Shown here: positions 33,544 through 47,618 of the stretch, piece after piece
Position numbering within the stretch: position 1 is the stretch's first letter
Layout of the letters: each line of letters opens with the position of its first letter
Origin: a virus
Taxonomy: Duplodnaviria > Caudoviricetes
Direction: 5' to 3' (one strand)
DNA length: 58,905 bases
Virus record (IMG/VR): IMGVR_UViG_3300045996_001882
Location: 1 to 58,905 of that record
Notes under the pieces: model-generated
What the model was told of the DNA's origin: nothing
The model's input: the letters and a program-made list of their open reading frames with translations, nothing else
The model's database searches: none
Program-made: the position numbers and the translations under genes

Positions 33544-35856
33544 ATGGAAGACAGGTTCGACCAGGATCAGGCCGCAATATTCCTTCACAGGTTGTTCGGC
33601 GATCGTAAAGGGTACATCTCGCTGGTCTTCGGTCACAACCCGAGGATGCAGAAGCCGAGGTTCGCGCCCGATGACTTTCGGCCGGCATTCTACCTTTGGC
33701 CTGAACAGTCAGACGACTTGTTCGAGGCAGTGGACGACTCGCTCAATCACCCGGACATGCGCGGCGACAACGTCGAGGTGTTCATCTGCCCGAGCCTGAG
33801 GAAGATCCCGTCGCGGAGCAGGGGCACGCACGCGCCGCTCATGTGGGTGTGGGCAGATCTCGACGTTGACCCGACACAGGATCAGATCGATCGCATGAAC
33901 CGGCTCGGCGCTATGACGGTGCTGTCAGGATCAGAAGGTCACAGGCACGTCTACATTCCTCTGGACAGGGCTGTCAAGGCGGTCGACCACAAGGCGCTGT
34001 GTCTTTCGCTGAAGGACGCTATCAAGGCCAAGGACTCGAAGATCGCAGAGAATGACTTGCTGCGGCTTCCCGGCACCTTGAACTGGAAGAGCCTCGAGCC
34101 CAAGCAGGTGTTCCTGAAGTCGATCGGTCGCAAGCCGAAAGACCCCAAGGAACTGATTCGCCTGCTCAACATGATGCACGGCAATCCTTGGTCTCACTAC
34201 AAGGAATACGCCGAGGCAACGACACCCAAGCAGCTCGAAGACGTGCGAGACGTCCCGCGGCCGAAGCTCACGGGCGACAGTCTCAAGGCGTACAGGTACT
34301 CGCCCGATTCGGACGGGCAGCGTCACGACGCGATCTACAAGCTCGTCAAGACGATGAAGGAACAAGGATACACGCGTGATCAGACCCACGCGACGCTCCA
34401 CACGTACCCGCCGGCGTTGAGCAAGTTCAAGACGCCGTGGGCTATCTCGAACGACGTCGACAGGATCTGGCAGAAGTCCAAGCTGTCATCACCTCTGAGT
34501 GCTGACAAGAAGACGGCAGCACCGGCAGCAGCGGACATCTCTGAGGAAGACGACGGCTCAGAGCAGCCTGAGCTCGAGTTTCACGTGTGGGGCGACGTCG
34601 TCAAGCGTGTGGACGAGGCACCGCCCCCGCAGTACTTGTTCCAAGGAATTTGGGTCGAGGGCGATTACGGCGTTGTGTCAGCGCCTGACAAGTCGGGCAA
34701 GTCGTGGACCATGGCAGATGCAGCGATATCGTGTGCGAGCGGTACGCCGTGGATGAATCGATGGGAAACGCCCCTCGGGCCGTCGCCTGTCGTGATCTGC
34801 TTCGGCGAAGGATCTGAGCGCAAGCAGATTCGACGCGCACGCGCTATCGCCCGTCACAAGGGAATCTCAGACGAAGACTTCCGTGCGCTGCCGATTCACC
34901 CGATGTTCTCTGTTCCTCAGATCAGCGACGATCAGCACCTCACAGAACTCGAGGCGAAGATCCGCACAGTGCGGCCCGCGCTCGTGATCATCGACCCGTT
35001 CTATCTCGCGGCGTCGGGCGCTGACTCGTCAAACCTGATCCAGATGGGAACGATGCTGCGTCGCATTCAGCTCGTGTGTCAGCGACACGGGGCTGCCCTG
35101 ATGATCAGTCATCACTTCAACAAGTCGTCATCAGCGGGCGGTAACGGCGACGTGCACTCGCGCTCGAGCGGTGTGGGACCGACAGCATGGGGTCGAGTTC
35201 TCGTCGCTATCGAGATCGAGCGGAACTACACTGACCCGATCACCAAGCGATCACAGGTGACCTTGAAATGGGATGTCAAGGGCGATGAGATCGCCAACGA
35301 GCAATTCCACGTTCAACGCGACGTGTGGGAGACTACACCCGGTGATCTGTCGAGCGACATGAACTACTCCCTGCAGTTCCAGGATCAGGAGGCTGTCGCT
35401 CAGGCTAAGCCCCTCGTGAACGCGCCGTCGATGCAGCGAGTCTCACAGATCTTGGAAGATCACAAGGCGGGATACGGCATTCGCGCGATCATGCGTGTGG
35501 CCAAGGAATCGGGAAAGGCAATCAGTCAGAAGACTGTTGAGAACTGCCTCGACCAGTTGATGTTGCACGGGTTCGTGCAAGAGGGGCCGAAGGTCGGGCT
35601 GACCAAACCTTACTTGTCGGTGAACCCATTCAGAGCCGACATGCTCAATGGCGACATGACATTGCAAGTGGCAAGCCACAATGGTGTACGCAAGCCATAC
35701 CGGCCACCATCATCAGCCACATCTACCACGCCCACACGTCGAGTGAACAACCTGAAGCCACGCATCACGAATCGTGCACCGCGTACGTCAGCCACACCGG
35801 CAGCCACTTTGATCCTCGACTTCTCACAAGTTTCGCGACCGCGACGACGTTACTAG
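33544..35856 (+). CDS. Primase-helicase (RepB-like primase domain plus RecA-like AAA_25 helicase, 770 aa)
   Basis: WVWADLD, SGSEGHRHVY, LLRLPGTLNWK; Walker A APDKSGKS; Walker B VIIDP; ISHHFNK. Confidence 0.88.
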   Translation: MEDRFDQDQAAIFLHRLFGDRKGYISLVFGHNPRMQKPRFAPDDFRPAFYLWPEQSDDLFEAVDDSLNHPDMRGDNVEVFICPSLRKIPSRSRGTHAPLMWVWADLDVDPTQDQIDRMNRLGAMTVLSGSEGHRHVYIPLDRAVKAVDHKALCLSLKDAIKAKDSKIAENDLLRLPGTLNWKSLEPKQVFLKSIGRKPKDPKELIRLLNMMHGNPWSHYKEYAEATTPKQLEDVRDVPRPKLTGDSLKAYRYSPDSDGQRHDAIYKLVKTMKEQGYTRDQTHATLHTYPPALSKFKTPWAISNDVDRIWQKSKLSSPLSADKKTAAPAAADISEEDDGSEQPELEFHVWGDVVKRVDEAPPPQYLFQGIWVEGDYGVVSAPDKSGKSWTMADAAISCASGTPWMNRWETPLGPSPVVICFGEGSERKQIRRARAIARHKGISDEDFRALPIHPMFSVPQISDDQHLTELEAKIRTVRPALVIIDPFYLAASGADSSNLIQMGTMLRRIQLVCQRHGAALMISHHFNKSSSAGGNGDVHSRSSGVGPTAWGRVLVAIEIERNYTDPITKRSQVTLKWDVKGDEIANEQFHVQRDVWETTPGDLSSDMNYSLQFQDQEAVAQAKPLVNAPSMQRVSQILEDHKAGYGIRAIMRVAKESGKAISQKTVENCLDQLMLHGFVQEGPKVGLTKPYLSVNPFRADMLNGDMTLQVASHNGVRKPYRPPSSATSTTPTRRVNNLKPRITNRAPRTSATPAATLILDFSQVSRPRRRY

Positions 35857-37126: not shown

Positions 37127-38662
37127 GTGGGATACAAGTGGAAGACCACACCGTACCTGCATCAAGTGAAGGGAGTGAAGCGGCTCCTTAAGCAAGGGTA
37201 CGGTGGCGCCCTGTTGATGGAACCGCGGACGGGGAAAACCAAGACGACGATCGACTGGCTGTCGATCTTGAACCAACAGGGCAAGCTCAAGAAGGTTTTG
37301 ATCATCTGCCCCGCACGCGTCATGGACGTGTGGGTCGCGGAGTTGCTGACTCATTCACCGCGTCGGGTCAACATCGTCGTGTGGGATAGAAAGGCACGCA
37401 AGGACGGTCCACTGCCCGAGCACAACCCGGTGTTCGACATGACTGTGGTGATCGTGAACTACAACGCGTTCGCCACACCCGGGAAGAAGTTGGCGAGCGG
37501 GCGACGCTCGAAAGCAACCGGGCGGTTCAAGTTCAGGTCGTTGATCTTCAAGTGGATTCAGGGTGAAGACGCGGCGTGCGTGCTCGACGAGAGTCACAAG
37601 ATCAAGAGTCCCAGCGGCAAGACGTCGAACATGGTGGTCAGTCTCGGCAGCAAGTTCACCTACCGCGTGATCCTCACCGGAACACCGGTCACGAAGGCGA
37701 AGCGACTTCACGACCTGTACATGCAGTGGCAGTTCTTGAACCCGAGCACGCTCGAACAAATCGGCATCTACACTGTAGCCGATATGAAGGATCGAATGGG
37801 ACGGTGGACTGAGCGCAACGGGTTCCCGCAGTTCCTGCGCGCGAATGACCAGGGTGTGGAAGAGATCCGTCACGCGATCCACACCGATGCCTACGCGGTG
37901 AAGCGCGAGGAGTGCTTCGACCTGCCGCCGAGTGAGAACCGCATCATCCACGTACCGCTCACGACGTCAGCACGTGTGTACGACGAGATGGCTGAGCGCC
38001 TCGTGGCGACACTGAAGGACAAGCTGCGGGAGGAACACACGGTCGAGGCCGGTATCCCACTCACGCTCGCCCTGAGGCTTGCTCAGATCACAGGAGGATG
38101 CGCCACGACGGACGAGGGCAAGATCCTGCGCGTCGGGCGTGAGAAGATCAACGTCTTGACCGAACTCGTGCAAGACGAAGCGGTCGAGAAAGAACAGAAG
38201 ATGGTGATCGCGGCGAGGTTCAAGCCCGACCTGGCCGCAGCTGCTCGCATCGGCACTCAACTCGGTCTCCCCGTGTACCGCCTTCAGGGCGGCATTAGTC
38301 GTCAAGAAGCCACCGACAGCATTCGCAAGTTCAAGGAATTGGAGGGTCCTGCTCTGTTCGTGATGCAGCCTTCCGCAGGATCGCTGGGCATCGACCTGTC
38401 AGCTGCTCATCATTTGGTGTGGTACAGCCAAACACCGAACTGGACTGACTACACGCAGTCGAACGACCGAATCGCCTTGGCGTCAGGCATCAAGACCTAC
38501 ACGTACCTGATCGCTCCCGACACGGTGGATCAGATCTTGTACGACAGCTTGCAACTGGACGGCGAGGTCGCTCGACACATCACCACACGTCCTGAGGGGT
38601 TGTTGCGCTCTCAGGCTTCGATCAAGCGCATGAATTCGATGCTGGATATCAACGCCAGCTAG
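37127..38662 (+). CDS. SNF2-family (SF2) helicase (511 aa)
   Basis: MEPRTGKT, LDESHKIK, LTGTP, GSLGIDL, QSNDRI. Confidence 0.92.
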   Translation: MGYKWKTTPYLHQVKGVKRLLKQGYGGALLMEPRTGKTKTTIDWLSILNQQGKLKKVLIICPARVMDVWVAELLTHSPRRVNIVVWDRKARKDGPLPEHNPVFDMTVVIVNYNAFATPGKKLASGRRSKATGRFKFRSLIFKWIQGEDAACVLDESHKIKSPSGKTSNMVVSLGSKFTYRVILTGTPVTKAKRLHDLYMQWQFLNPSTLEQIGIYTVADMKDRMGRWTERNGFPQFLRANDQGVEEIRHAIHTDAYAVKREECFDLPPSENRIIHVPLTTSARVYDEMAERLVATLKDKLREEHTVEAGIPLTLALRLAQITGGCATTDEGKILRVGREKINVLTELVQDEAVEKEQKMVIAARFKPDLAAAARIGTQLGLPVYRLQGGISRQEATDSIRKFKELEGPALFVMQPSAGSLGIDLSAAHHLVWYSQTPNWTDYTQSNDRIALASGIKTYTYLIAPDTVDQILYDSLQLDGEVARHITTRPEGLLRSQASIKRMNSMLDINAS

Positions 38663-38715: not shown

Positions 38716-39267
38716 ATGATCATAGTAGAGGGATGTGATGGGAGCGGGAAAGACACCCTGATCCAATCACTGGCGTCGTACTTCCAGCTGCCCGTGCACG
38801 AGCGAGCCTGTACCAGTGAAGGGGGACCGATCGACGATCTCTACTCGTGGGTTCAGCGCGACGTTCTGCGCTTGCAGGAGCAGCCCCTGTCGATCTACAA
38901 CCGGCATCCTCTCGTGTCCGAGTACATCTACGGTCCGATCGTTCGTCAGTTCCTCCCGCAGGAATTCACCACGACGAACGCGCACCTCCTGATCAGGATG
39001 CTCGCCCAGCGGTCGTTCTTGATCGTGTGCGAGCCCCCCATGCACGAGGTCGCGCACAACCTGTCCGCTCAGCCGCACAACGCGCAGATGCCGGGAGTGT
39101 TCGATCACTTCCCGCAGATCTACAGTGCGTATCAGACGATGCGTCAGTTCTGGCCCGGCCAGGTCATGACGTACAACTACACCTACGGACAAGATCACTT
39201 CAACGGTCTTCTGTCCGCACTTCGCATCCACGTCGCCACTGAGAGGAACTACCGCCATGCCGCGTGA
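38716..39267 (+). CDS. dNMP kinase, thymidylate-kinase-like (183 aa)
   Basis: MIIVEGCDGSGKDT P-loop; YNRHPLVSEYIYG. Confidence 0.85.
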   Translation: MIIVEGCDGSGKDTLIQSLASYFQLPVHERACTSEGGPIDDLYSWVQRDVLRLQEQPLSIYNRHPLVSEYIYGPIVRQFLPQEFTTTNAHLLIRMLAQRSFLIVCEPPMHEVAHNLSAQPHNAQMPGVFDHFPQIYSAYQTMRQFWPGQVMTYNYTYGQDHFNGLLSALRIHVATERNYRHAA

Positions 39268-39862
39268 ATTCGTCAAGTCCGCCGAGATCATCTCTCTCTA
39301 CGACATCCAGGAGGACTCGAACGAGTGGCGCACCCAGGCCTACCCCGACACGTGCGGCCCGATGTACCAGTTCATGGGGGTGGCCGAGGAGGTCGGTGAA
39401 CTGTCGCACGCGCTCCTCAAGTACCTTCAGGGCATCCGCGGTTACGACAAGGACCGCATGCTCGCCGAGGTCGGCGACGCCGGGGGCGACATCGTCATCT
39501 TCCTGTGTGGGCTGTTCTCGTCGCTCGGCCTCGATCTCGAGCAGGAAGTGAACCAGGCGTGGGCTCACGTCAAGAACCGCAACCTGCGACAGGGTTCCGA
39601 CAACGGCTCGACCTCCGGCACCTACACGGCTCCCGCGGATGTCGACGTGCCGGCGCAGAATAACTCCCAGCAGCGCGGTGATCAGCCCAAGCCCGTGTGC
39701 GCCACGAACTGCGGGTGCTCGATGTCGGACGATGTCAAGGTCGTCAGCGTCGATGACACCCCCATCAACCAGCTCAACCCCGAGCAGCGTGAACGTCTCC
39801 TGGGCATGCCGCCCGTCAAGCCGTCCTACGACGCTGCTGCGCACGCGAACAGGATCCCCTGA
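39257..39862 (+). CDS. mazG: MazG-like dNTP pyrophosphohydrolase with C-terminal extension (201 aa)
   Basis: GVAEEVGEL...AEVGD EXXE/EXXD motifs. Confidence 0.85.
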   Translation: MPREFVKSAEIISLYDIQEDSNEWRTQAYPDTCGPMYQFMGVAEEVGELSHALLKYLQGIRGYDKDRMLAEVGDAGGDIVIFLCGLFSSLGLDLEQEVNQAWAHVKNRNLRQGSDNGSTSGTYTAPADVDVPAQNNSQQRGDQPKPVCATNCGCSMSDDVKVVSVDDTPINQLNPEQRERLLGMPPVKPSYDAAAHANRIP

Positions 39863-40752
39863 TGGTTCATCTGATCAAGGCTCCGACCGCGACGCTGCTT
39901 CACGACAAGCTGGCGAATTCGCTCCTGTTCGGTTCTCGAACCGAGCTCGATGACGCCAACTCGGTCGACGTGCAGCTTCACAACGTCGTGGCCGAGGCCG
40001 ACTCGTTCGAGTGGCTCAACAGCGCCGAGAGGTTCTGGACGACTCGTTCGAGGTGGAACACGATGGTGCGGCAGTACATCGATCCCGTGGCTCTTCAGGA
40101 ATGGCTCAACATCATCGAGGGCCGATTCCCGTCGAGCAAGCGCGGCGTCGCCGTTCTGCGCACCAACACGGTGGCCTCACGCAACACCGGCCGGGGTGTG
40201 ACCCGTCGATGGGGTTCGTGCATGTTGAGCCTGTCGTACCGCGTCAAGCCGTGGCCTCAGATCACCCTGCACTCGCGCACGTGCTACCTGGGCTACTTGA
40301 GTGTTCTCGACATGACGGTGGCCCACGTGTGTGCACGTCTCGCCGGCGCACGATCGGGTGTGGACCCAACAAGCATGAGGTTCGTGTGGAATCTCGAGAT
40401 GGCCCAGTTCCACGGCTTCAGGTGCCTCGCGTACCCGGTCGGGGGATCGGACGATTTCTTCGAAGAGTTCACCGCGCACGACGCGAGACGCGAGACTTAC
40501 CCGGGCGTGTACCTCGCACGCAAGGAGTACGACAAGATCGAGGCGCTCGACAACGCGCTGGTGCCGTACGGCGATCAGTCGTTCTCATCCAGCCGTCGGG
40601 TTCGCCGTCGGTTCCACACCCAGGTTCACGGGTACGACTACGCACTTCAGTTCGAGGGGGGTAAGGACCCCAAGAATTCGAGGGCGTACCGACCGATTCC
40701 CCACACGTCGACCGACGATCTGGACTTCACACCGATTGGGATTATCGCATGA
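39862..40752 (+). CDS. Divergent thymidylate-synthase-fold paralogue (296 aa)
   Basis: PSSKRG, WGSCMLSLSYR, LHSRTCYLGYLSVLD, AQFH in the order and spacing of TS motifs (manual alignment). Confidence 0.55.
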   Translation: MVHLIKAPTATLLHDKLANSLLFGSRTELDDANSVDVQLHNVVAEADSFEWLNSAERFWTTRSRWNTMVRQYIDPVALQEWLNIIEGRFPSSKRGVAVLRTNTVASRNTGRGVTRRWGSCMLSLSYRVKPWPQITLHSRTCYLGYLSVLDMTVAHVCARLAGARSGVDPTSMRFVWNLEMAQFHGFRCLAYPVGGSDDFFEEFTAHDARRETYPGVYLARKEYDKIEALDNALVPYGDQSFSSSRRVRRRFHTQVHGYDYALQFEGGKDPKNSRAYRPIPHTSTDDLDFTPIGIIA

Positions 40753-41561
40753 GAACCACCGGCCGCACTGTGTTCACCGATGTGCATTCGACTGAGTTCA
40801 GTCGTCTGTTCTCGATCCTTCGTCACAACCTCAACGAATCGTCGGTGTACGACCGCGGTCGGTGGCAATCCCAAGACGTCTCGACGCGCCCTGAGATGAA
40901 CACACGCGAACTCTGGAACGTGCACATCGAGTACGACATGCCGACGACGAACAAGGCGCTTGTGGACGCTGTGAGGCCTAACCGGCCGTGGGCCGACGAC
41001 CACTTCCTCGAGCGCGTGTCTGGTCAACCGCTCAACCCGCCGCCGTCGTCATCTTGGTGGCCTTTCAACCAACGGGACAATGCTCAGCACAAGTCGGCCG
41101 ACAAGTTCTCCCACACGTACCCCGAGCGATTCTGGCCCAAGTGGGCCAACGGCAAGGACGTCGAACGAAACCCCAAGAAGCACCGAGGTATTCGATTTGG
41201 TTATGGTGATCTCGCCGACGTCGTCAAGCAACTGCGAGCTGACCCTTTCACCCGCCAAGCATACCTCCCTGTCTGGTTCCCCGAGGACACCGGCGCGGTG
41301 CACGGCGAGCGAGTCCCGTGCTCGTTGGGTTACCATTTTGTCCGCAATGGCAGTAGGCTTGATTGCGTTTATAGCCTTCGCTCTTGTGACTTTTTCCGTC
41401 ATTTCCGTGATGATGTATATCTCGCTTGCCGGCTCACCGATTGGATCCAAGATCAGCTCCTGGATGTGGATGGTTATCCCTGGCTAGGCAAGCTCGTGCT
41501 CAACATCTCGAACCTGCACTGTTTCCGTGGAGACCAATGGCTGCTTGACAAGGAGGACTGA
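40749..41561 (+). CDS. Thymidylate-synthase-fold enzyme, probable dCMP C5-modifying (methyl/hydroxymethyl) transferase (270 aa)
   Basis: HFLERV, TYPERF, PFTRQAYL, VPCSLGYHF, LRSCDFFRHFRDD, NLHCF; Asp at E. coli ThyA Asn177 position. Confidence 0.8.
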   Translation: MRTTGRTVFTDVHSTEFSRLFSILRHNLNESSVYDRGRWQSQDVSTRPEMNTRELWNVHIEYDMPTTNKALVDAVRPNRPWADDHFLERVSGQPLNPPPSSSWWPFNQRDNAQHKSADKFSHTYPERFWPKWANGKDVERNPKKHRGIRFGYGDLADVVKQLRADPFTRQAYLPVWFPEDTGAVHGERVPCSLGYHFVRNGSRLDCVYSLRSCDFFRHFRDDVYLACRLTDWIQDQLLDVDGYPWLGKLVLNISNLHCFRGDQWLLDKED

Positions 41562-41566
41562 CCAAC

Positions 41567-41713
41567 ATGGATCGCAAAGCTCGCATATCGGTGTGGTGGG
41601 ATCGAGTAGGCTTACCCTCATTCCTCGGCTTTCTGATCGTGTGCTTCGTGATGTCTCTGGCGTTCGGCGTGTTCTTCGTTCTTCGTGGTCTGGGGTGGCT
41701 CCCGTGCCCGTGA
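41567..41713 (+). CDS. Small membrane protein (48 aa)
   Basis: Own translation MDRKARISVWWDRVGLPSFLGFLIVCFVMSLAFGVFFVLRGLGWLPCP; AGGAGG upstream; GTGA overlap with deaminase. Confidence 0.5.
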   Translation: MDRKARISVWWDRVGLPSFLGFLIVCFVMSLAFGVFFVLRGLGWLPCP

Positions 41714-42144
41714 CGCCTCGTCCCACACGCCATGACATGCTGATGCAGATTGCTCATGTGGTGGCCTCTCGTTCGACGTGCGATCGACTCAACGTCGGTG
41801 CAGTTCTGTCTCGCGAGGGTCGCGTTCTGTCCATGGGCTACAACGGCCCGGCGAGCGGTCTGCCCCACTGTGCACACGAGAACGGGGAGCCGTGCGACGC
41901 TGCGATCCATGCAGAGGCCAACGCGATCACGTGGGCTGCTCGTGACGGAATACGGATCGTCGCGTCTGATCTGTACGTCACGCACATGCCGTGCCTGGGG
42001 TGCGCGAAGTTGATCGCCCAGGCAGGAATTCGCCGAGTCATTTTCCAGAGTTCGTATCGCGACCGGGCAGGACTTGACTTACTCACACGTGCTCGCGTAG
42101 GTTTCGTCAGTTACGATCCGACATTGTCGGGAGGAGGACTGTAA
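41710..42144 (+). CDS. dCMP deaminase (144 aa)
   Basis: RSTC.R..VGAV, GYNG, HAEANAI, PCLGCAK. Confidence 0.92.
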   Translation: MTPRPTRHDMLMQIAHVVASRSTCDRLNVGAVLSREGRVLSMGYNGPASGLPHCAHENGEPCDAAIHAEANAITWAARDGIRIVASDLYVTHMPCLGCAKLIAQAGIRRVIFQSSYRDRAGLDLLTRARVGFVSYDPTLSGGGL

Positions 42145-44696
42145 TGGGTGTGGGGAATCCACGCATTGAGCTGGCGGTTCGTAATGCCGACTGCACTGCT
42201 TGCAAGCTTCACGTCCAGGCTGACGGCGACGACCGCTGTGTGACCGCGAGGGGTTCCCACGCGTCCGACGTTCTCATTCTGACCAAGCATCCACTCGGGC
42301 CCCGTGCGCTCAAGGAGCTGAAGACGTACCTCGAGCGCGCGGGTTTCGACCCCGAGCAGTTGTTGTACACGGGCGCAAGCAAGTGCTTGACCTGGGATCT
42401 CGAACCGACGAAGACGACGATGAAGGCGTGCAAGCCTTACCTTGAGGCTGAGGTCGAAACGTCGAAGGTCAAGTGGATTCTTGCGATCGGCAACGAGGCT
42501 CTGTATTCCGCCGCCGGCAAGTCCGGGATCATGAAGCACCGCGGGATCACCTACGACGGTGTGGGTGGTTCTCGAGTCGTCGCGACGATCTCGCCGGCGA
42601 TGGTGTACCGCAATCCCGGCCAGAAGAGCGGGTTCGAGGCTGACTTGCGTTACTTCTACAACCTCGTGACCAAGAATCCGACAATCGCCGCTGCCGAGCC
42701 CGATGAAATCCACACCGTTGACACGAAGGAAAAGCTGCACGCATTCCTGGAAACACTCGCCAACGGTGAAGCAGCGGCCTACGACCTCGAGACGACCGGG
42801 TTCGAAGAGTACGTCTCAGACGCTGCTATCGTGTCAATGGCGGTGACAGTACGAACGCGTGACGCGAAGACGTCAGCGACGACTACAGAGTGCTTTGCGG
42901 TGCCCCTCTGGCATCCCGATTCGCCGTGGCGTACCGCGTGGCGTCGCATCATGGAACTCATCGGCAAGTACCTCGCTCGAGTTCCCAAGCGCATCGCTCA
43001 CAACGGGAAGTTCGACAACAGGTGGTGTCGTCAGTTCAACGCTCGCGTCAAGCTGACATTCGACACGATGCTGGCGGCACACCTCCTCGACGAGAATCGA
43101 CCCAAGGGGCTCAAGCCTCTCGCACGTACGCTCCTCGGTGCGCCGCCGTGGGACATCCAGATTCACAACGTCAAGGGCAAGCCGTGGTGGGAAGTTCACG
43201 GGCTCGACAACATCCTGAAGTACAACGGGCTCGACACCTGGCACACCCTTCGCCTTTACGACCTGTTCGTCGAGGAGTTGAAGAAGAACCCGCGGTTGGC
43301 CAAGATCATGCAGTACCTGATGATGCCCGCCAACGAGGTGTTCACCGACGCCGAGATGCACGGGGTGTGGGTCGACCTCAAGCGTTTGACGGCCAACTAC
43401 CAGATCGTCCTCGAGCGCCTCGCCGATGTCGAACAACGCCTCTCGAAGTGGATTCCTGAGGACCACGGATTTGGCGAGGTCAACTTCAACCCCTCGAACT
43501 TCGCACGGTGGTGGTTGTTCACCCATCTCAAGCTGCCCGTCCTCGCCCGTGGCAAGCAGAAGGAAGATGGTTCACCTGGAGCGCCGTCGATGTCTGAGGC
43601 TGTGATGCTCGAGCTTCAGGAGATCCACGAAGTTCCACGTATGTTGCTCGAACGCGCGGGCTATGAGAAGAATCGACAGTTCTTCGCTGCGTACTCGAAC
43701 CTGGTTGACAGTCGCGGTCGTATCCACACGTCGTTCAAGCTGACTGGGACCGTGACAGGGCGACTTTCTTCGGGCAAGGAAGAAGCCGACAAGGTGTCAG
43801 GCCGCGTACCGCAGCGAGGTGTGAACCTTCAACAAGTTCCCCGTGATTCGTTCGTGCGCGGTGTGTTCGGCGCCGCACCCGGGAACTACTTCGTTGAGTG
43901 CGACTACTCCCAGGTTGAACTTCGAGTTGCTGCCTTCCTCGCCCAAGAGCGTACGATGTTGCACCTGTACGCAACGGGTCAGGACATTCACATGGCGATG
44001 GCTATGAGGATGACCGGCAAGGCTGCGAAGGACGTCACCAAGGAGGAGCGCAAGAAGGCCAAGGCCGTGAACTTCGGGTTCTTGTACGGCATGGGCTGGA
44101 ACAAATTCATCTCCACTGCATGGCTCAACTACGGCGTTCGAGTGACCGAGGAGGAAGCACAGGCATTCCGACGGGCATTCTTCGATCAGTTCCCGATGCT
44201 GCTCAAGTGGCACGCTTCGTGCAAGGCGTTCGCGCGCAAGCACGGGTATGTCATCAGCCCGCTGGGTCGCAAGCGCAACCTTCCCGACATCTACTCCCAG
44301 GTTCAGTCAGTGGCGAACGAAGCTGGACGTCAGGCGATCAACTCGCCCGTTCAATCGTTCGCATCTGACATGGCATTGTGGTCGATGGTGCTCGTCAATC
44401 AGCAGTTCAAGAAGCGCGGGATGAAGGCCACACCGATCGGGACCGTTCACGATGCTGTGAACTACGAAGTGCCCGCCGACGAGGTACACATCGCTGTTCC
44501 GATCATCAAGCACACGATGGAGAACTTGCCCCTCCAGAAGTACTTCGGCATCGACCTGAACGTTCCGATCATCGGTGACGTCAAGCTGGGAACTCACTGG
44601 GGTGACTCGCTCGAGATGGACAACGAGGTGTCTGTCAACGGTGAGCGCATCCTTGAGTGGATGAATGAGAAGGGGTTTGTGACCAATGCCAGTTGA
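42144..44696 (+). CDS. polA: Family A DNA polymerase with N-terminal UDG-family-4-like domain and 3'-5' exonuclease (850 aa)
   Basis: CTACKLH; YDLETTG, HNGKFD, YNGLD; TGRLSS, DYSQVELR, RKKAKAVNFGFLYG, TVHDA. Confidence 0.95.
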   Translation: MGVGNPRIELAVRNADCTACKLHVQADGDDRCVTARGSHASDVLILTKHPLGPRALKELKTYLERAGFDPEQLLYTGASKCLTWDLEPTKTTMKACKPYLEAEVETSKVKWILAIGNEALYSAAGKSGIMKHRGITYDGVGGSRVVATISPAMVYRNPGQKSGFEADLRYFYNLVTKNPTIAAAEPDEIHTVDTKEKLHAFLETLANGEAAAYDLETTGFEEYVSDAAIVSMAVTVRTRDAKTSATTTECFAVPLWHPDSPWRTAWRRIMELIGKYLARVPKRIAHNGKFDNRWCRQFNARVKLTFDTMLAAHLLDENRPKGLKPLARTLLGAPPWDIQIHNVKGKPWWEVHGLDNILKYNGLDTWHTLRLYDLFVEELKKNPRLAKIMQYLMMPANEVFTDAEMHGVWVDLKRLTANYQIVLERLADVEQRLSKWIPEDHGFGEVNFNPSNFARWWLFTHLKLPVLARGKQKEDGSPGAPSMSEAVMLELQEIHEVPRMLLERAGYEKNRQFFAAYSNLVDSRGRIHTSFKLTGTVTGRLSSGKEEADKVSGRVPQRGVNLQQVPRDSFVRGVFGAAPGNYFVECDYSQVELRVAAFLAQERTMLHLYATGQDIHMAMAMRMTGKAAKDVTKEERKKAKAVNFGFLYGMGWNKFISTAWLNYGVRVTEEEAQAFRRAFFDQFPMLLKWHASCKAFARKHGYVISPLGRKRNLPDIYSQVQSVANEAGRQAINSPVQSFASDMALWSMVLVNQQFKKRGMKATPIGTVHDAVNYEVPADEVHIAVPIIKHTMENLPLQKYFGIDLNVPIIGDVKLGTHWGDSLEMDNEVSVNGERILEWMNEKGFVTNAS

Positions 44697-45747
44697 GCTG
44701 TACGTCGATCCTGACACCGGGATGAACATCGTCACGCACTCGATGGTGAAGGCGTTTCGACGGTGCCCGCGTCAGGCCATGTACAAGTACGTGGACCGAC
44801 TCAAGCCCAAGGCGCTGTCGAAGCCCCTGAAGCGCGGAACGTGGATCCACGCACTACTCGAGACGCATTACAAGGGCGGTGACTGGCGGGACACGCACAA
44901 GAAGCTCAGCGAGCAATTCTACCGGCTGTTCGTGGAAGAACAGGAGGCCCTCGGCGATCTCCCGCGCGAGATCCGTCGACTGATGCAGTCGTACTTCTGG
45001 CACTACCGCGACGACGCTGACTGGAAGGTACTCGAGACCGAGTTCACCATCGAGACCGAACTCTTCCCGGGCACGATCTACCGCGGACGTGTGGACAATC
45101 TCGTCGAGACCCCTTACGGTCTTTACGTGGTCGACCACAAGAGCCATCGCACGTTGCCCGACCTGTCAGACCAATTGCTCGACCCGCAGTCCGTTCTGTA
45201 CGTGTGGGCTGCACGTCGACTCGGCATGCCTGTGAAGGGATTCATCTGGAACTACATCAAGACGGATCCCCCCAAGCAGCTTCGATTCAAGAAGGACGGC
45301 AACCTGTACGCGAAGCAGGGTGCAACAGACTACCCGACCGCGTACCGTAGCCTGATGGCACGCGGCATCGACCCGCGCGACGAGGAGAACGAGAAGTGGG
45401 TGGCGTATCTGAAGCCCCTTCAGAACCAGCGTTACCGACCGGACTCTACGCTGCAGTTGTCCCCCTTCTTCCGTCGCGATACGTTGGAAAAGGATGACGC
45501 GATGATCGAACGAGCAGTCAAGGAGGTGATCCACACCGTCAAGCGAATGCAGAAGTACCCCTTCGACAAGCGCGATTACGTCGAGCGTGTGGTCAACCGT
45601 GACTGCAAGTACTTCTGCTCATACCGTTCGATCTGCACGTCTGACCTGATGGGCGGCAATTCCGAACTGATCGCTCGACAGCAGTTCCGCGTCGGCGACC
45701 CGATGGACTACTACCGCGACGACAAGCTGGAGGAAACAACGTCATGA
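44686..45747 (+). CDS. Cas4/RecB-like PD-(D/E)XK exonuclease (353 aa)
   Basis: CPRQ, GTWIH, GRVD...VDHKS, Q...Y, C-terminal CKYFCSYRSIC. Confidence 0.85.
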   Translation: MPVELYVDPDTGMNIVTHSMVKAFRRCPRQAMYKYVDRLKPKALSKPLKRGTWIHALLETHYKGGDWRDTHKKLSEQFYRLFVEEQEALGDLPREIRRLMQSYFWHYRDDADWKVLETEFTIETELFPGTIYRGRVDNLVETPYGLYVVDHKSHRTLPDLSDQLLDPQSVLYVWAARRLGMPVKGFIWNYIKTDPPKQLRFKKDGNLYAKQGATDYPTAYRSLMARGIDPRDEENEKWVAYLKPLQNQRYRPDSTLQLSPFFRRDTLEKDDAMIERAVKEVIHTVKRMQKYPFDKRDYVERVVNRDCKYFCSYRSICTSDLMGGNSELIARQQFRVGDPMDYYRDDKLEETTS

Positions 45748-45995
45748 GTAATGACCCGCACTACGTCCTGCGTTACACGATCGAGCGTGTGGATCACATC
45801 AAGCCCGAGGCCCGTAGTTCGTACCGAACGGATTCGTTGCCCGAGCCGAAGGAGACGCGTGTCGTGACGGAACTCGCCTCCCACACGCTGAAGCGCGGTG
45901 ACCTGACTAGTCTGATCGCGACGGCGATCAAGCACCTCGATCTGGTGGAGGACGACAACATCCACGACCCGAAGCCGAAGGGTAATGTTCGCTGA
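45744..45995 (+). CDS. Hypothetical protein (83 aa)
   Basis: Coupled to both neighbours; GGAGG RBS. Confidence 0.6.
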   Translation: MSNDPHYVLRYTIERVDHIKPEARSSYRTDSLPEPKETRVVTELASHTLKRGDLTSLIATAIKHLDLVEDDNIHDPKPKGNVR

Positions 45996-46786
45996 TGAAG
46001 ATCACTCTGATCTCGAGCAGTACCCTGGTGCCGGCGCGGGGCGCGATCGAAGGTCCACCGTGGGCGATCAACAAGTGGCTCCCCGAGGACGGCCGTCGAG
46101 GCGACGACGAGTGGAGTCCCGACTTCGCTGACGACGCTGACATGATCACCGAGTTCGCGGGCCGTGCGTGTTACGAGTCGTGGGACAGGCCGAACCCCAA
46201 CACGGCTCACAACGCGGACTACGTGCGCAACATCCTGGGGCAGCAGCACGAGTCTGTGCTGGAACACTCATCCCTGACGTTCTACGTCGAGGAGGTGTCG
46301 CGTTCGATGACGCTCGAGTTGGTGCGTCACAGGCACCTGAGTTACTCGCAGCGGTCTCAACGTTACGTCAACGAGTCGTTGTCCGATTTCGTGATTCCGG
46401 GCGATCTCAGCGACCGTCAGCGCGATCCGTACATCGCCCGGCTGATCGAGGAACTCAAGGATCATCACAAGTCGGCCGCGAACCTCTACGGTGAGATCGT
46501 CGAGGCCCTGATGGACACCTGCGTAGACGAGCGGGGCGAGCTGTACCCCAAGCTGGGAATCAAGCAGGCGCGAGGTGCTGCTCGGGCGGCGCTGCTCGAG
46601 TCGACCCACACCAACATCGTCGTCACGGGCAACTTGCGCGCCTGGCGTGACATGCTCAAGAAGCGGTGGCACGTCGCTGCGGAGAGGGAAATCCGCGAGT
46701 TTGCCGGCTTGATCCTCGCCGACATACGATCAATCGCACCTAACAGCGTTCAGGACATTCCGTCCGAACCCTACGGAACGGAGTGA
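45995..46786 (+). CDS. thyX: Flavin-dependent thymidylate synthase ThyX (263 aa)
   Basis: EFAGRACYES, HESVLEH, RHRHLSYSQRSQRY, NLRAWR, AEREIR. Confidence 0.95.
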   Translation: MKITLISSSTLVPARGAIEGPPWAINKWLPEDGRRGDDEWSPDFADDADMITEFAGRACYESWDRPNPNTAHNADYVRNILGQQHESVLEHSSLTFYVEEVSRSMTLELVRHRHLSYSQRSQRYVNESLSDFVIPGDLSDRQRDPYIARLIEELKDHHKSAANLYGEIVEALMDTCVDERGELYPKLGIKQARGAARAALLESTHTNIVVTGNLRAWRDMLKKRWHVAAEREIREFAGLILADIRSIAPNSVQDIPSEPYGTE

Positions 46787-46787
46787 C

Positions 46788-47618
46788 GTGGCGACCACCA
46801 CCGCGCGCAAGGTCGCAGCACGCAAGGACTACGACGCGATTGCTGCGAGCAAGATCACGAGCCCCACGGCTCAGGGTCTGTTCCGCCCGCGCATTCTCGT
46901 CTACGGCAAGAATAAGAAGGGCAAGACCCGTTTCTGCACCACGCCCGGCAAGGGCAAAGTGCTGATCGTCGACCCCGAAGAGGGCACGAAGGCGATGAAG
47001 CGGCTCGACCCGGACGTCTGGCCGATCTCGAAGTGGGAAGACATCGATGATGTCTACAACTTCCTGAAGGGGGGCAATCACAACTACGAGTACGTCGCCC
47101 TCGACGGGATGACGCGCATTCACGACTTCGCCATTCGGTGGGTCATGAACGTGGCAGCTGAAGCCCGCCTCGACTCGAAGCCTGTTCTGGTGCAGAAGCA
47201 GCACTACGGCCAGGCAGGTCGACTGACGTCGGACCTGATCACGAACTTCCACAACCTCCCCATGGGTGTCATCTACACCGCTCAGGAGCGCATGGAGGCC
47301 AGTGCGGGGTTCGACGAGGAGGACGACGACGTCGAGCAGGCTGCTGCTCAGATCGTTCCCGCACTTCCGAAGGGTGCACGCGCCGCGCTCAACCAGATCG
47401 TGGACGTGATCGGCCGAATCTACATCGTGAAGGTCGAGAACCCGAAGGACCCGGAGAAGGTCATTCTCCAACGACGGCTGTTCGTGGAACCGAGCGAGCG
47501 ATTCGACACGGGTTACCGTTCGGACTTCCAGCTGCCGCCATTCATCAAGAACCCGACAGTTCCGCGTCTCATGGATCTGATCAACACGGGTAAGAGCGAA
47601 AGGGTTACCGCCAAGTGA
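46788..47618 (+). CDS. AAA_24 / Sak4-like RecA-family ATPase (276 aa)
   Basis: YGKNKKGKT, IVDPEEG, VALDG, YTAQE. Confidence 0.8.
   Translation: MATTTARKVAARKDYDAIAASKITSPTAQGLFRPRILVYGKNKKGKTRFCTTPGKGKVLIVDPEEGTKAMKRLDPDVWPISKWEDIDDVYNFLKGGNHNYEYVALDGMTRIHDFAIRWVMNVAAEARLDSKPVLVQKQHYGQAGRLTSDLITNFHNLPMGVIYTAQERMEASAGFDEEDDDVEQAAAQIVPALPKGARAALNQIVDVIGRIYIVKVENPKDPEKVILQRRLFVEPSERFDTGYRSDFQLPPFIKNPTVPRLMDLINTGKSERVTAK

Follow-up and report, generated by a model that had tools for sequence, protein, structure and literature searches.

The stretch of DNA analysed here (hereafter the window) spans 58.9 kb and represents a complete virus record that carries direct terminal repeats (IMG/VR record IMGVR_UViG_3300045996_001882, positions 1 to 58,905; Caudoviricetes), and the present analysis concerns a pair of adjacent genes on its plus strand. 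The first of them (39862..40752, +) encodes a divergent protein of 296 amino acids (aa) with a thymidylate synthase (TS) fold, assigned to phrog_13667 (E 2.3e-92), a group of unknown function, whereas the second (40749..41561, +) encodes a 270-aa ThyA-type TS homolog, recognized by PF00303 and phrog_160 (E 7.2e-29) and predicted to be a C5 (hydroxy)methyl transferase specific for deoxycytidine monophosphate (dCMP). The stop of the 296-aa gene and the start of the 270-aa gene have the tetranucleotide ATGA in common (40749..40752, +; the junction reads ...GCATGAGAACC...), and the start of the 296-aa gene overlaps in turn the stop of an upstream MazG-like gene (TGATG). The ATGA overlap and the presence of four TS landmark motifs had been pointed out in a first-pass annotation of the window, made from the sequence alone, and both observations hold, the motifs PSSKRG, GSC, RTCYLGYLSVLD and AQFH occurring in this order in the 296-aa translation. 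The counterparts of the two genes are annotated with the same 4-nt overlap in the phages KimJongPhill and AndPeggy, and with a 2-nt gap in phage Muddy.

The conclusion that the 296-aa gene is real, conserved and encodes a TS-fold protein is held with high confidence, its reality being evident from the 570 database proteins that match its product at E ≤ 1e-3 and from the 251 cluster representatives retrieved by a profile search with the family. The 296-aa protein matched no Pfam family at E ≤ 0.1 and no NCBIfam entry, and judged by sequence the family is previously unannotated in the databases examined. No publication on this gene in Muddy-like or other actinophages was found, with the proviso that the supplementary tables of PMC13326640 and PMC8670742 may list TS homologs of these phages.

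The AlphaFold2 model of the 296-aa protein, built on a 54-sequence alignment, has a mean predicted local distance difference test (pLDDT) score of 93.2 and a predicted template modelling (pTM) score of 0.90. Comparison of this model with the Protein Data Bank (PDB) using Foldseek returned 12 matches at E ≤ 1e-3, and every one of the 11 listed belongs to the TS superfamily, in agreement with the fold proposed by the first-pass annotation. The best match was the dCMP hydroxylase AfhB of phage HY126 (9iqu; E 1.2e-5, template modelling (TM) scores of 0.39 and 0.51); the other listed matches included a second AfhB structure (9iqc), the enzyme MilA, the T4 dCMP hydroxymethylase and the TS of varicella-zoster virus, and human TS and other TS chains followed with E values just above 1e-3. 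The models of the two proteins have their secondary structure elements in equal order, starting with a strand, a helix and a further strand, continuing with a pair of helices and three strands, and ending with a long helix and a strand; past this shared core a helical C-terminal domain (residues ~190-296) replaces the TS C-terminus in the 296-aa protein. On the evidence of its model, the 296-aa protein is thus a member of the TS superfamily by fold that lies outside the family by sequence. A feature search of the ESM Atlas placed 21 of 30 matches in one set, an example cluster of which carries PF00303 on 67% of its members (score 0.92); this is to be taken as a lead only.

The comparison with predicted viral structures in BFVD ranked three uncharacterized proteins first, with TS and gp42/dCMP hydroxymethylase entries appearing from rank 4. 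These three proteins, A0A8S5NA65, A0A8S5VMM2 and A0A2I6PI74, originate from a Myoviridae sp., an Ackermannviridae sp. and Pseudomonas phage PMBT14 and are nearer to the 296-aa model than any annotated TS (TM 0.56-0.71, E 2e-11 to 2e-8). They share 10-14% identity with the 296-aa protein and were missed by all sequence searches made. Since these viral proteins are its closest predicted structures, a wider unannotated branch of the fold is suggested, and the remodelled form may extend beyond the actinophage lineage into other phage groups.

Residue conservation was counted in 93 distinct members of the 296 family drawn from 160 loci. The codons of residues 118-150, comprising G118-S-C120, S138-R139-T140-C141-Y142 and D150, lie at 40213..40311 (+), as computed from the start of the open reading frame (ORF). 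Gly118, Cys120 and Tyr72 are present in all 93 members, and Arg139 and Asp150 in 92 of 93 each, while Tyr72, Gly118, Cys120, Arg139 and Trp176 are invariant in an alignment of 69 sequences reaching down to ~20% identity. In the model, Cys120 stands at the start of the strand 122-127, Arg139 within the strand 133-142, and Asp150 at the N-terminus of the helix 147-165, where by register it follows Arg139 by 11 residues, exactly as Asn177 follows Arg166 in TS. The proposed equivalences are therefore Cys120 with Cys146, Arg139 with Arg166, Tyr142 with Asp169, Asp150 with Asn177 and His184 with Tyr209 (Gln182 with His207); they are well motivated by strand and helix register, though not proven. A non-significant hhalign alignment of the two families (probability 0.3%) pairs C120 with C191, R139 with R211, Y142 with D214, D150 with D222 and H184 with H257 of the TS homolog. 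The first-pass annotation had noted Tyr in place of the conserved Asp169, and by register this substitution extends to the family: position 142 is Tyr in 85 members, Ser in five, and Leu, His and a gap in one each, and is never Asp or Asn. TS enzymes are obligate dimers in which Arg126' and Arg127' are contributed by the other subunit; where this pair would be, the 296-aa protein has Lys93-Arg94, the arginine being kept in 76 of the 93 members. Since Cys120, Arg139 and Asp150 are kept almost without exception, the 296-aa protein most likely has enzymatic activity by itself, rather than serving as the structural half of a heterodimer. A separate conserved stretch, R-x-R-x-R-x-H, occurs on a helix of the C-terminal addition (residues 246-252; 40597-40617, +), with Arg246 and Arg250 in 85 and His252 in 83 of the 86 members (out of 93) that have this region; possible ligands of this stretch are nucleic acid and an anionic co-substrate.

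The 270-aa protein is an undoubted TS homolog: it passes the PF00303 cutoff narrowly (25.1 bits against 24.3) and falls far under every NCBIfam ThyA equivalog cutoff. Its AlphaFold2 model (pLDDT 84.6) has AfhB, MilA and the T4 dCMP hydroxymethylase as its top Foldseek matches (E 1e-10 to 1e-8), and TS-family chains are matched at E values of 3e-10 and below. Cys191, Arg211-Ser212-Cys213-Asp214, Asp222 and Arg188 are invariant among TS homolog sequences, and His257 is kept. Asp222, found in 120 of 120 sequences, aligns with the Asn229/177 column of Lactobacillus casei TS chains, and the best PDB sequence match of the protein is 1njc_A, which itself has Asp in this column. The entries 1njc and 1njd are of the N229D mutant of the L. 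casei enzyme. Position 192, corresponding to position 147 of TS, is Ser or Thr and never His. As reported in PMC13326640 and PMC8670742, Asp at position 177 switches TS enzymes to dCMP, and contigs assigned to modified cytosine combine a non-His residue at 147 with Asp at 177 in company with PRA-PH/MazG and dCMP deaminase genes (PMC8670742). No active-site residue is missing from the 270-aa protein, which, because of the Asp at the Asn177 position, should be dCMP-specific.

Among cultured phages, a tblastn search of 50,697 phage records detected the 296 family in 85, which without exception are from actinophages (68 of Gordonia, nine of Mycobacterium, four of Streptomyces, two of Microbacterium, and one each of Mycobacteroides and Curtobacterium), and two divergent members used as queries recovered the same 85 records. 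In Muddy, Shrew, KimJongPhill and AndPeggy (4/4) the gene order is helicase, kinase, MazG/dUTPase, hypothetical protein, 'thymidylate synthase', (dCMP deaminase) and PolA, the hypothetical protein being the 296-family member, which in Muddy is gp47; Muddy has no annotated dCMP deaminase. In the Gordonia phage AndPeggy (locus L004, 5873-6712) a lysin B is annotated between the TS homolog and the dCMP deaminase, within the cassette.

The association between the two genes proved to be one-sided. A TS-family ORF lies directly downstream of the 296-family gene, on the same strand, in 75 of 76 IMG/VR loci, and the sole locus without it stops at the contig end. Conversely, of 80 loci encoding the closest relatives of the 270-aa protein (46-55% identity), 42 have a 296-family gene directly upstream (32 strong matches and 10 divergent forms) and 38 have none in their flanks, 35 of these 38 including at least 1.7 kb of upstream sequence. 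The co-occurrence of the pair across phages, which the first-pass annotation had named as a check, therefore stands in one direction (75/76) and fails in the other (42/80). One of the 38 partner-less loci, L035, has a 288-aa upstream ORF whose alignment with the 296-family profile is weak (probability 52%, E 1.4e-4) but brings GNC, R and D into register, and by its sequence this locus probably carries a very divergent 296 copy; it was counted as 'unknown' in the residue comparison of partner-bearing and partner-less sequences. The 296 family was found in none of five whole partner-less records, two of which are at least 99% complete, while the window record, serving as positive control, was recovered (1/1).

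In this residue comparison, Cys191, Arg169, Gln170, Arg188, Arg211, Asp222 and His257 were 100% identical between 91 partner-bearing and 29 partner-less TS homologs. With identical active sites in the 38 partner-less loci, the TS homolog evidently does not need the 296-aa protein. A quick maximum likelihood tree of 124 TS homologs placed most of the partner-less ones in one well-supported clade (27, plus three of unknown status), and the partner label requires at least three changes on this tree. A position on helix J of the TS homolog, 229 (codon ~41433-41435), is Leu in 99% of the 91 partner-bearing and Lys in 93% of the 29 partner-less sequences, and could be either a contact site or a mere clade marker. 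No enzyme using 5-hydroxymethylcytosine (e.g., a carbamoyltransferase) was found among 20 neighbouring ORFs scanned beside partner-less TS homologs; these ORFs were unrelated to one another's loci in content and gave methyltransferase, metallophosphatase, DUF669, IMPDH-like, endonuclease or lysozyme domains, or nothing. In large viral contigs of 177-219 kb, L025 (5141-5854 and 6712-7626) and L031 (5167-5817 and 6641-7591), the partner-less TS gene is located between an upstream Methyltransf_24 and a downstream FkbM-type Methyltransf_21 gene, an arrangement by which the same modified cytosine may be elaborated in another way. Loci L078 and L158 belong to one 19-kb viral contig, which thus harbours both a solo TS homolog close to the 270-aa protein and a divergent TS homolog paired with a divergent 296-family gene.

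The two genes are embedded in a run of replication and nucleotide-metabolism genes on the plus strand of the window (33.5-48 kb). Upstream of them, domain and PHROG assignments identified a primase/helicase (33544-35856, +) and an SNF2 helicase (37127-38662, +), followed by a 183-aa P-loop protein resembling deoxynucleoside monophosphate (dNMP) or thymidylate kinases (38716..39267, +), which matches phrog_761 'thymidylate kinase' (E 8.3e-12) and, under the cutoff, Pfam Thymidylate_kin (E 0.006), and whose counterparts occupy the corresponding place in Muddy (gp49), Shrew (gp72), KimJongPhill (gp75) and AndPeggy (gp48). The next gene encodes a 201-aa MazG-like nucleotide pyrophosphohydrolase (39257..39862, +; phrog_715 MazG-like, E 6.8e-6; phrog_1994, E 4.9e-9) with a weak Pfam PRA-PH match (E 0.047), and its syntenic counterparts in the four named actinophages are annotated as dUTPase or MazG-like. 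Downstream of the TS homolog, a dCMP deaminase is encoded by an ORF that in its longest form specifies 205 aa (41527..42144, +; PF00383, E 1.6e-21 on residues 68-173; phrog_174, E 1.5e-52) and a GTG start within the 3' end of the TS gene; since residue 68 is the first that the Pfam domain covers, translation probably begins downstream of the TS stop at 41561. It is followed by DNA polymerase I (42144-44696, +) and a PD-(D/E)XK nuclease (44686-45747, +), both from domain and PHROG assignments, a 263-aa flavin-dependent thymidylate synthase, ThyX (45995..46786, +; PF02511, E 3.1e-47; TIGR02170 thyX, 160.9 bits, cutoff 87.9), and a Sak4-like annealing protein (46788-47618, +), likewise assigned by domain and PHROG. 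The genome thus contains three genes of 'thymidylate synthase' type, the bona fide ThyX being located 4.4 kb downstream of the pair, and its presence in the same genome makes a role in deoxythymidine monophosphate (dTMP) synthesis unnecessary for either of the ThyA-fold genes. A tblastn search with the ThyX of the window found no such gene within the 6-kb flanks of any of the 156 IMG/VR loci (0 of 42, 0 of 38 and 0 of 76).

Taken together, these data lead us to favour, with moderate confidence, a two-step system in which the 296-aa protein is a separate, folate-independent TS-fold enzyme acting on a cytosine nucleotide, probably the product of the TS homolog. Since the 296 family is never kept without the TS homolog, which itself often occurs alone, the substrate of the former would most likely be the product of the latter, and with Tyr142 in place of Asp169, the residue to which the folate pterin binds, the 296-aa enzyme should not use methylene-tetrahydrofolate. 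In PMC13326640, Asp169 is described as the mark of folate enzymes and its change to Asn (D169N) as that of flavin-dependent 5-hydroxy-dCMP synthases. In the scheme that follows we infer the substrate, the order of the steps, the cofactor and the product. The MazG-like pyrophosphatase would convert deoxycytidine triphosphate (dCTP) to dCMP, on the C5 of which the 270-aa homolog, with its Asp at position 177, would place a one-carbon unit. The resulting 5-hydroxymethyl- or 5-methyl-dCMP would be converted further by the 296-aa enzyme, in which Arg139 would hold the 5'-phosphate, Asp150 would read the N3/N4 face of cytosine, and Cys120 would add to C6 and thereby activate C5, so that the C5 group could be remodelled. 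The P-loop kinase would then rephosphorylate the modified nucleotide, while dCMP deaminase and ThyX would supply dTMP; the cassette as a whole would parallel the T4 scheme, in which C5 modification is combined with a dCTPase, a dNMP kinase and a dCMP deaminase. A more specific form of this proposal, which we put forward tentatively and regard as rather doubtful, starts from 5-hydroxymethyl-dCMP: addition of Cys120 to C6 would expel the hydroxyl and regenerate an exocyclic 5-methylene, which a new nucleophile would capture, giving an undescribed 5-substituted cytosine, formed on the nucleotide, in the DNA of Muddy-like actinophages, among which are phages in therapeutic use against mycobacteria.

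Several results weigh against the two-step proposal. None of 54 members of the 296 family matches PF00303, even at E ≤ 10, and searches of PDB sequences with the 296-aa protein (phmmer) and with two profiles gave nothing significant, the only hits being to TNFAIP3 (E 0.15). Alignments of the 296 family with the TS homolog family by hhalign reached probabilities of 2.6 and 0.3%, neither of them significant, and the residue equivalences rest on strand and helix register and on this non-significant alignment, not on superposition. The TM-scores of the 296-aa model to solved TS-family structures are modest (0.31-0.51); for comparison, even the TS homolog reaches no more than 0.44-0.66 with these chains, and its three best-ranked enzymes are identical. 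The published rule for the product of such enzymes is said to assign Asp or Glu at position 143 to hydroxymethylases and Leu to methylases, but the Leu143 position of the TS homolog is occupied by Arg188 in 120 of 120 sequences, and whether the 270-aa protein makes a hydroxymethyl or a methyl product is therefore not readable from this rule. The confinement of the family, among cultured phages, to the 85 actinophage records also has to be considered, as do the 76 loci with a 296-family gene, which largely represent one replication module (by tblastn, SNF2 in 73, kinase in 72, dCMP deaminase in 71 and PolA in 71). Because these loci share ancestry, the apparent association is inflated, and the constant company of the two genes may in part reflect conserved synteny within one phage lineage. 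In some loci several genes separate the 296-family and TS genes, with a stop-to-stop gap of up to ~1.1 kb, and no modified base was found for Muddy-like or other actinophages in the literature searched.

The first-pass annotation had offered two functional alternatives, a heterodimer and a system of two steps, the divergent copy acting further on the base, and of these the second fits better, given the 296-aa protein's own Cys, Arg and Asp and the TS gene downstream in 75 of 76 loci. The TS fold normally dimerises, and in the heterodimer alternative the two proteins would pair through the central sheet in the manner of TS, with one canonical folate site and one remodelled site, Arg94 and Arg169 being lent to the phosphate pocket of the partner. 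The common fold of the two proteins speaks for such an arrangement, as do the ATGA coupling in the window and in two of four annotated relatives (with the 2-nt gap in a third) and the fact that the 296 family is not seen without a TS homolog; the Leu/Lys split at position 229, which follows partner status, could mark a contact, but is weakened by the partner-less set being essentially one clade. An obligate heterodimer is not supported, given the TS homologs that stand alone in 38 of 80 loci of close relatives with an identical active site, Arg169 included, and that are therefore evidently able to form their own dimer. The first-pass annotation had named, as evidence that would tell against its proposal, either the lack of a TS fold in the 296-aa protein or full activity of the 270-aa protein alone together with its occurrence in relatives without the partner; partner-less relatives were found, whereas the fold itself is present. 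Arg94 is conserved in only 76 of the 93 members, some loci have further genes between the pair, and a fused 296-TS protein occurs neither in any of 1630 longer candidates, which is weak evidence, nor in the best 150 of the 251 representatives (longest 371 aa). A complex prediction for the two proteins, run with two alignments and no controls (score 0.00, mark 0.32), speaks neither for nor against binding. All things considered, a heterodimer appears unlikely.

If the 296-aa protein is indeed an enzyme, it might also work in parallel with the TS homolog, acting directly on dCMP with a non-folate cofactor such as flavin and introducing a C5 substituent unrelated to the product of its neighbour. 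This would be in line with the flavin-dependent AfhB (9iqu, 9iqc) as the best solved structural match, with Asp150, which suggests a cytosine substrate, and with the loss of the folate-binding Asp169, which is also lost, to Asn, in the 5-hydroxy-dCMP synthases according to PMC13326640. The diagnostic D169N is nevertheless not present, the position being Tyr in 85 of 93 members and never Asn, and AfhB ranks equally on top for the ordinary 270-aa homolog, so that this ranking is not specific. Moreover, if the protein used dCMP independently, some loci should have it without a TS homolog, yet both are found in 75 of 76 loci, and two enzymes competing for C5 of one dCMP pool are hard to rationalize; we therefore consider independent action quite improbable. 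The idea that the protein has kept the TS fold for a non-catalytic purpose, as a nucleotide-binding regulator, a scaffold for deoxynucleoside triphosphate (dNTP) synthesis or an inhibitor of a host enzyme, draws on the fact that no cofactor site can be named in it and on its helical C-terminal third, the conserved Arg246, Arg248, Arg250 and His252 of which could bind protein or nucleic acid. Near-absolute conservation of Cys, Arg and Asp down to ~20% identity is not expected of a scaffold, and this role seems very unlikely to us.

Should the two-step reading be correct, it predicts an unknown cytosine modification. The gene in question stands as a 'hypothetical protein' in the 85 cultured actinophage records, among them that of Mycobacterium phage Muddy and those of phages infecting Mycobacteroides abscessus; for these phages, a DNA modification would be relevant to the evasion of restriction, to host range and to behaviour in sequencing or cloning. 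A conserved second enzyme of this fold, its cofactor pocket remodelled and its occurrence strictly tied to the first, would also represent a new reaction type for the fold. To our knowledge, the known TS-fold pyrimidine modifiers, i.e., ThyA, the dCMP and dUMP (deoxyuridine monophosphate) hydroxymethylases, dCMP methylase, MilA and the 5-hydroxy-dCMP synthases (reported in 2025-26), all act alone on an unmodified nucleotide.

Compared with canonical ThyA (PF00303), the 296-aa protein has the same order of strands and helices, and its Cys, Arg and helix-J specificity positions correspond by register, but its family fails the Pfam model (0/54), which the 270-aa protein barely passes. MilA, the cytidine monophosphate (CMP) hydroxymethylase of mildiomycin biosynthesis (5jnh, 5b6d), is a TS-fold enzyme specific for cytosine nucleotides and holds Foldseek rank 2 for both proteins of the window; it differs in being folate-dependent, in using a ribonucleotide and in belonging to a bacterial antibiotic pathway, and its root-mean-square deviation from the 296-aa model is ~15 Å over the alignment. 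The T4 dCMP hydroxymethylase (gp42; 1b5d, 6a9a, 6l18) shares by Foldseek the fold of the 296-aa and 270-aa proteins and has, as is proposed here, an Asp at the Asn177 position and the catalytic Cys, and it works in a cassette with dCTPase, dNMP kinase and dCMP deaminase, as described in PMC13326640. The 296-aa protein departs from gp42 by the Tyr at its Asp169 position, by its helical C-terminal domain and by the lack of detectable sequence similarity, and the 270-aa protein has Arg, not Asp or Glu, at the Leu143 position. The flavin-dependent 5-hydroxy-dCMP synthases AfhB (phage HY126; 9iqu, 9iqc), RB69 gp48 and DLP3 gp80, the first of which is the best solved structural match of the 296-aa model (E 1.2e-5), are described in the same paper as enzymes that have retained the TS fold, abandoned folate, act on dCMP and lost Asp169. 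They bear the D169N signature, whereas the 296 family has Tyr and never Asn at this position, and, at ~217-234 aa, they are the sole TS homologs of their pathways, while the 296 family is always found beside a second homolog of the folate type.

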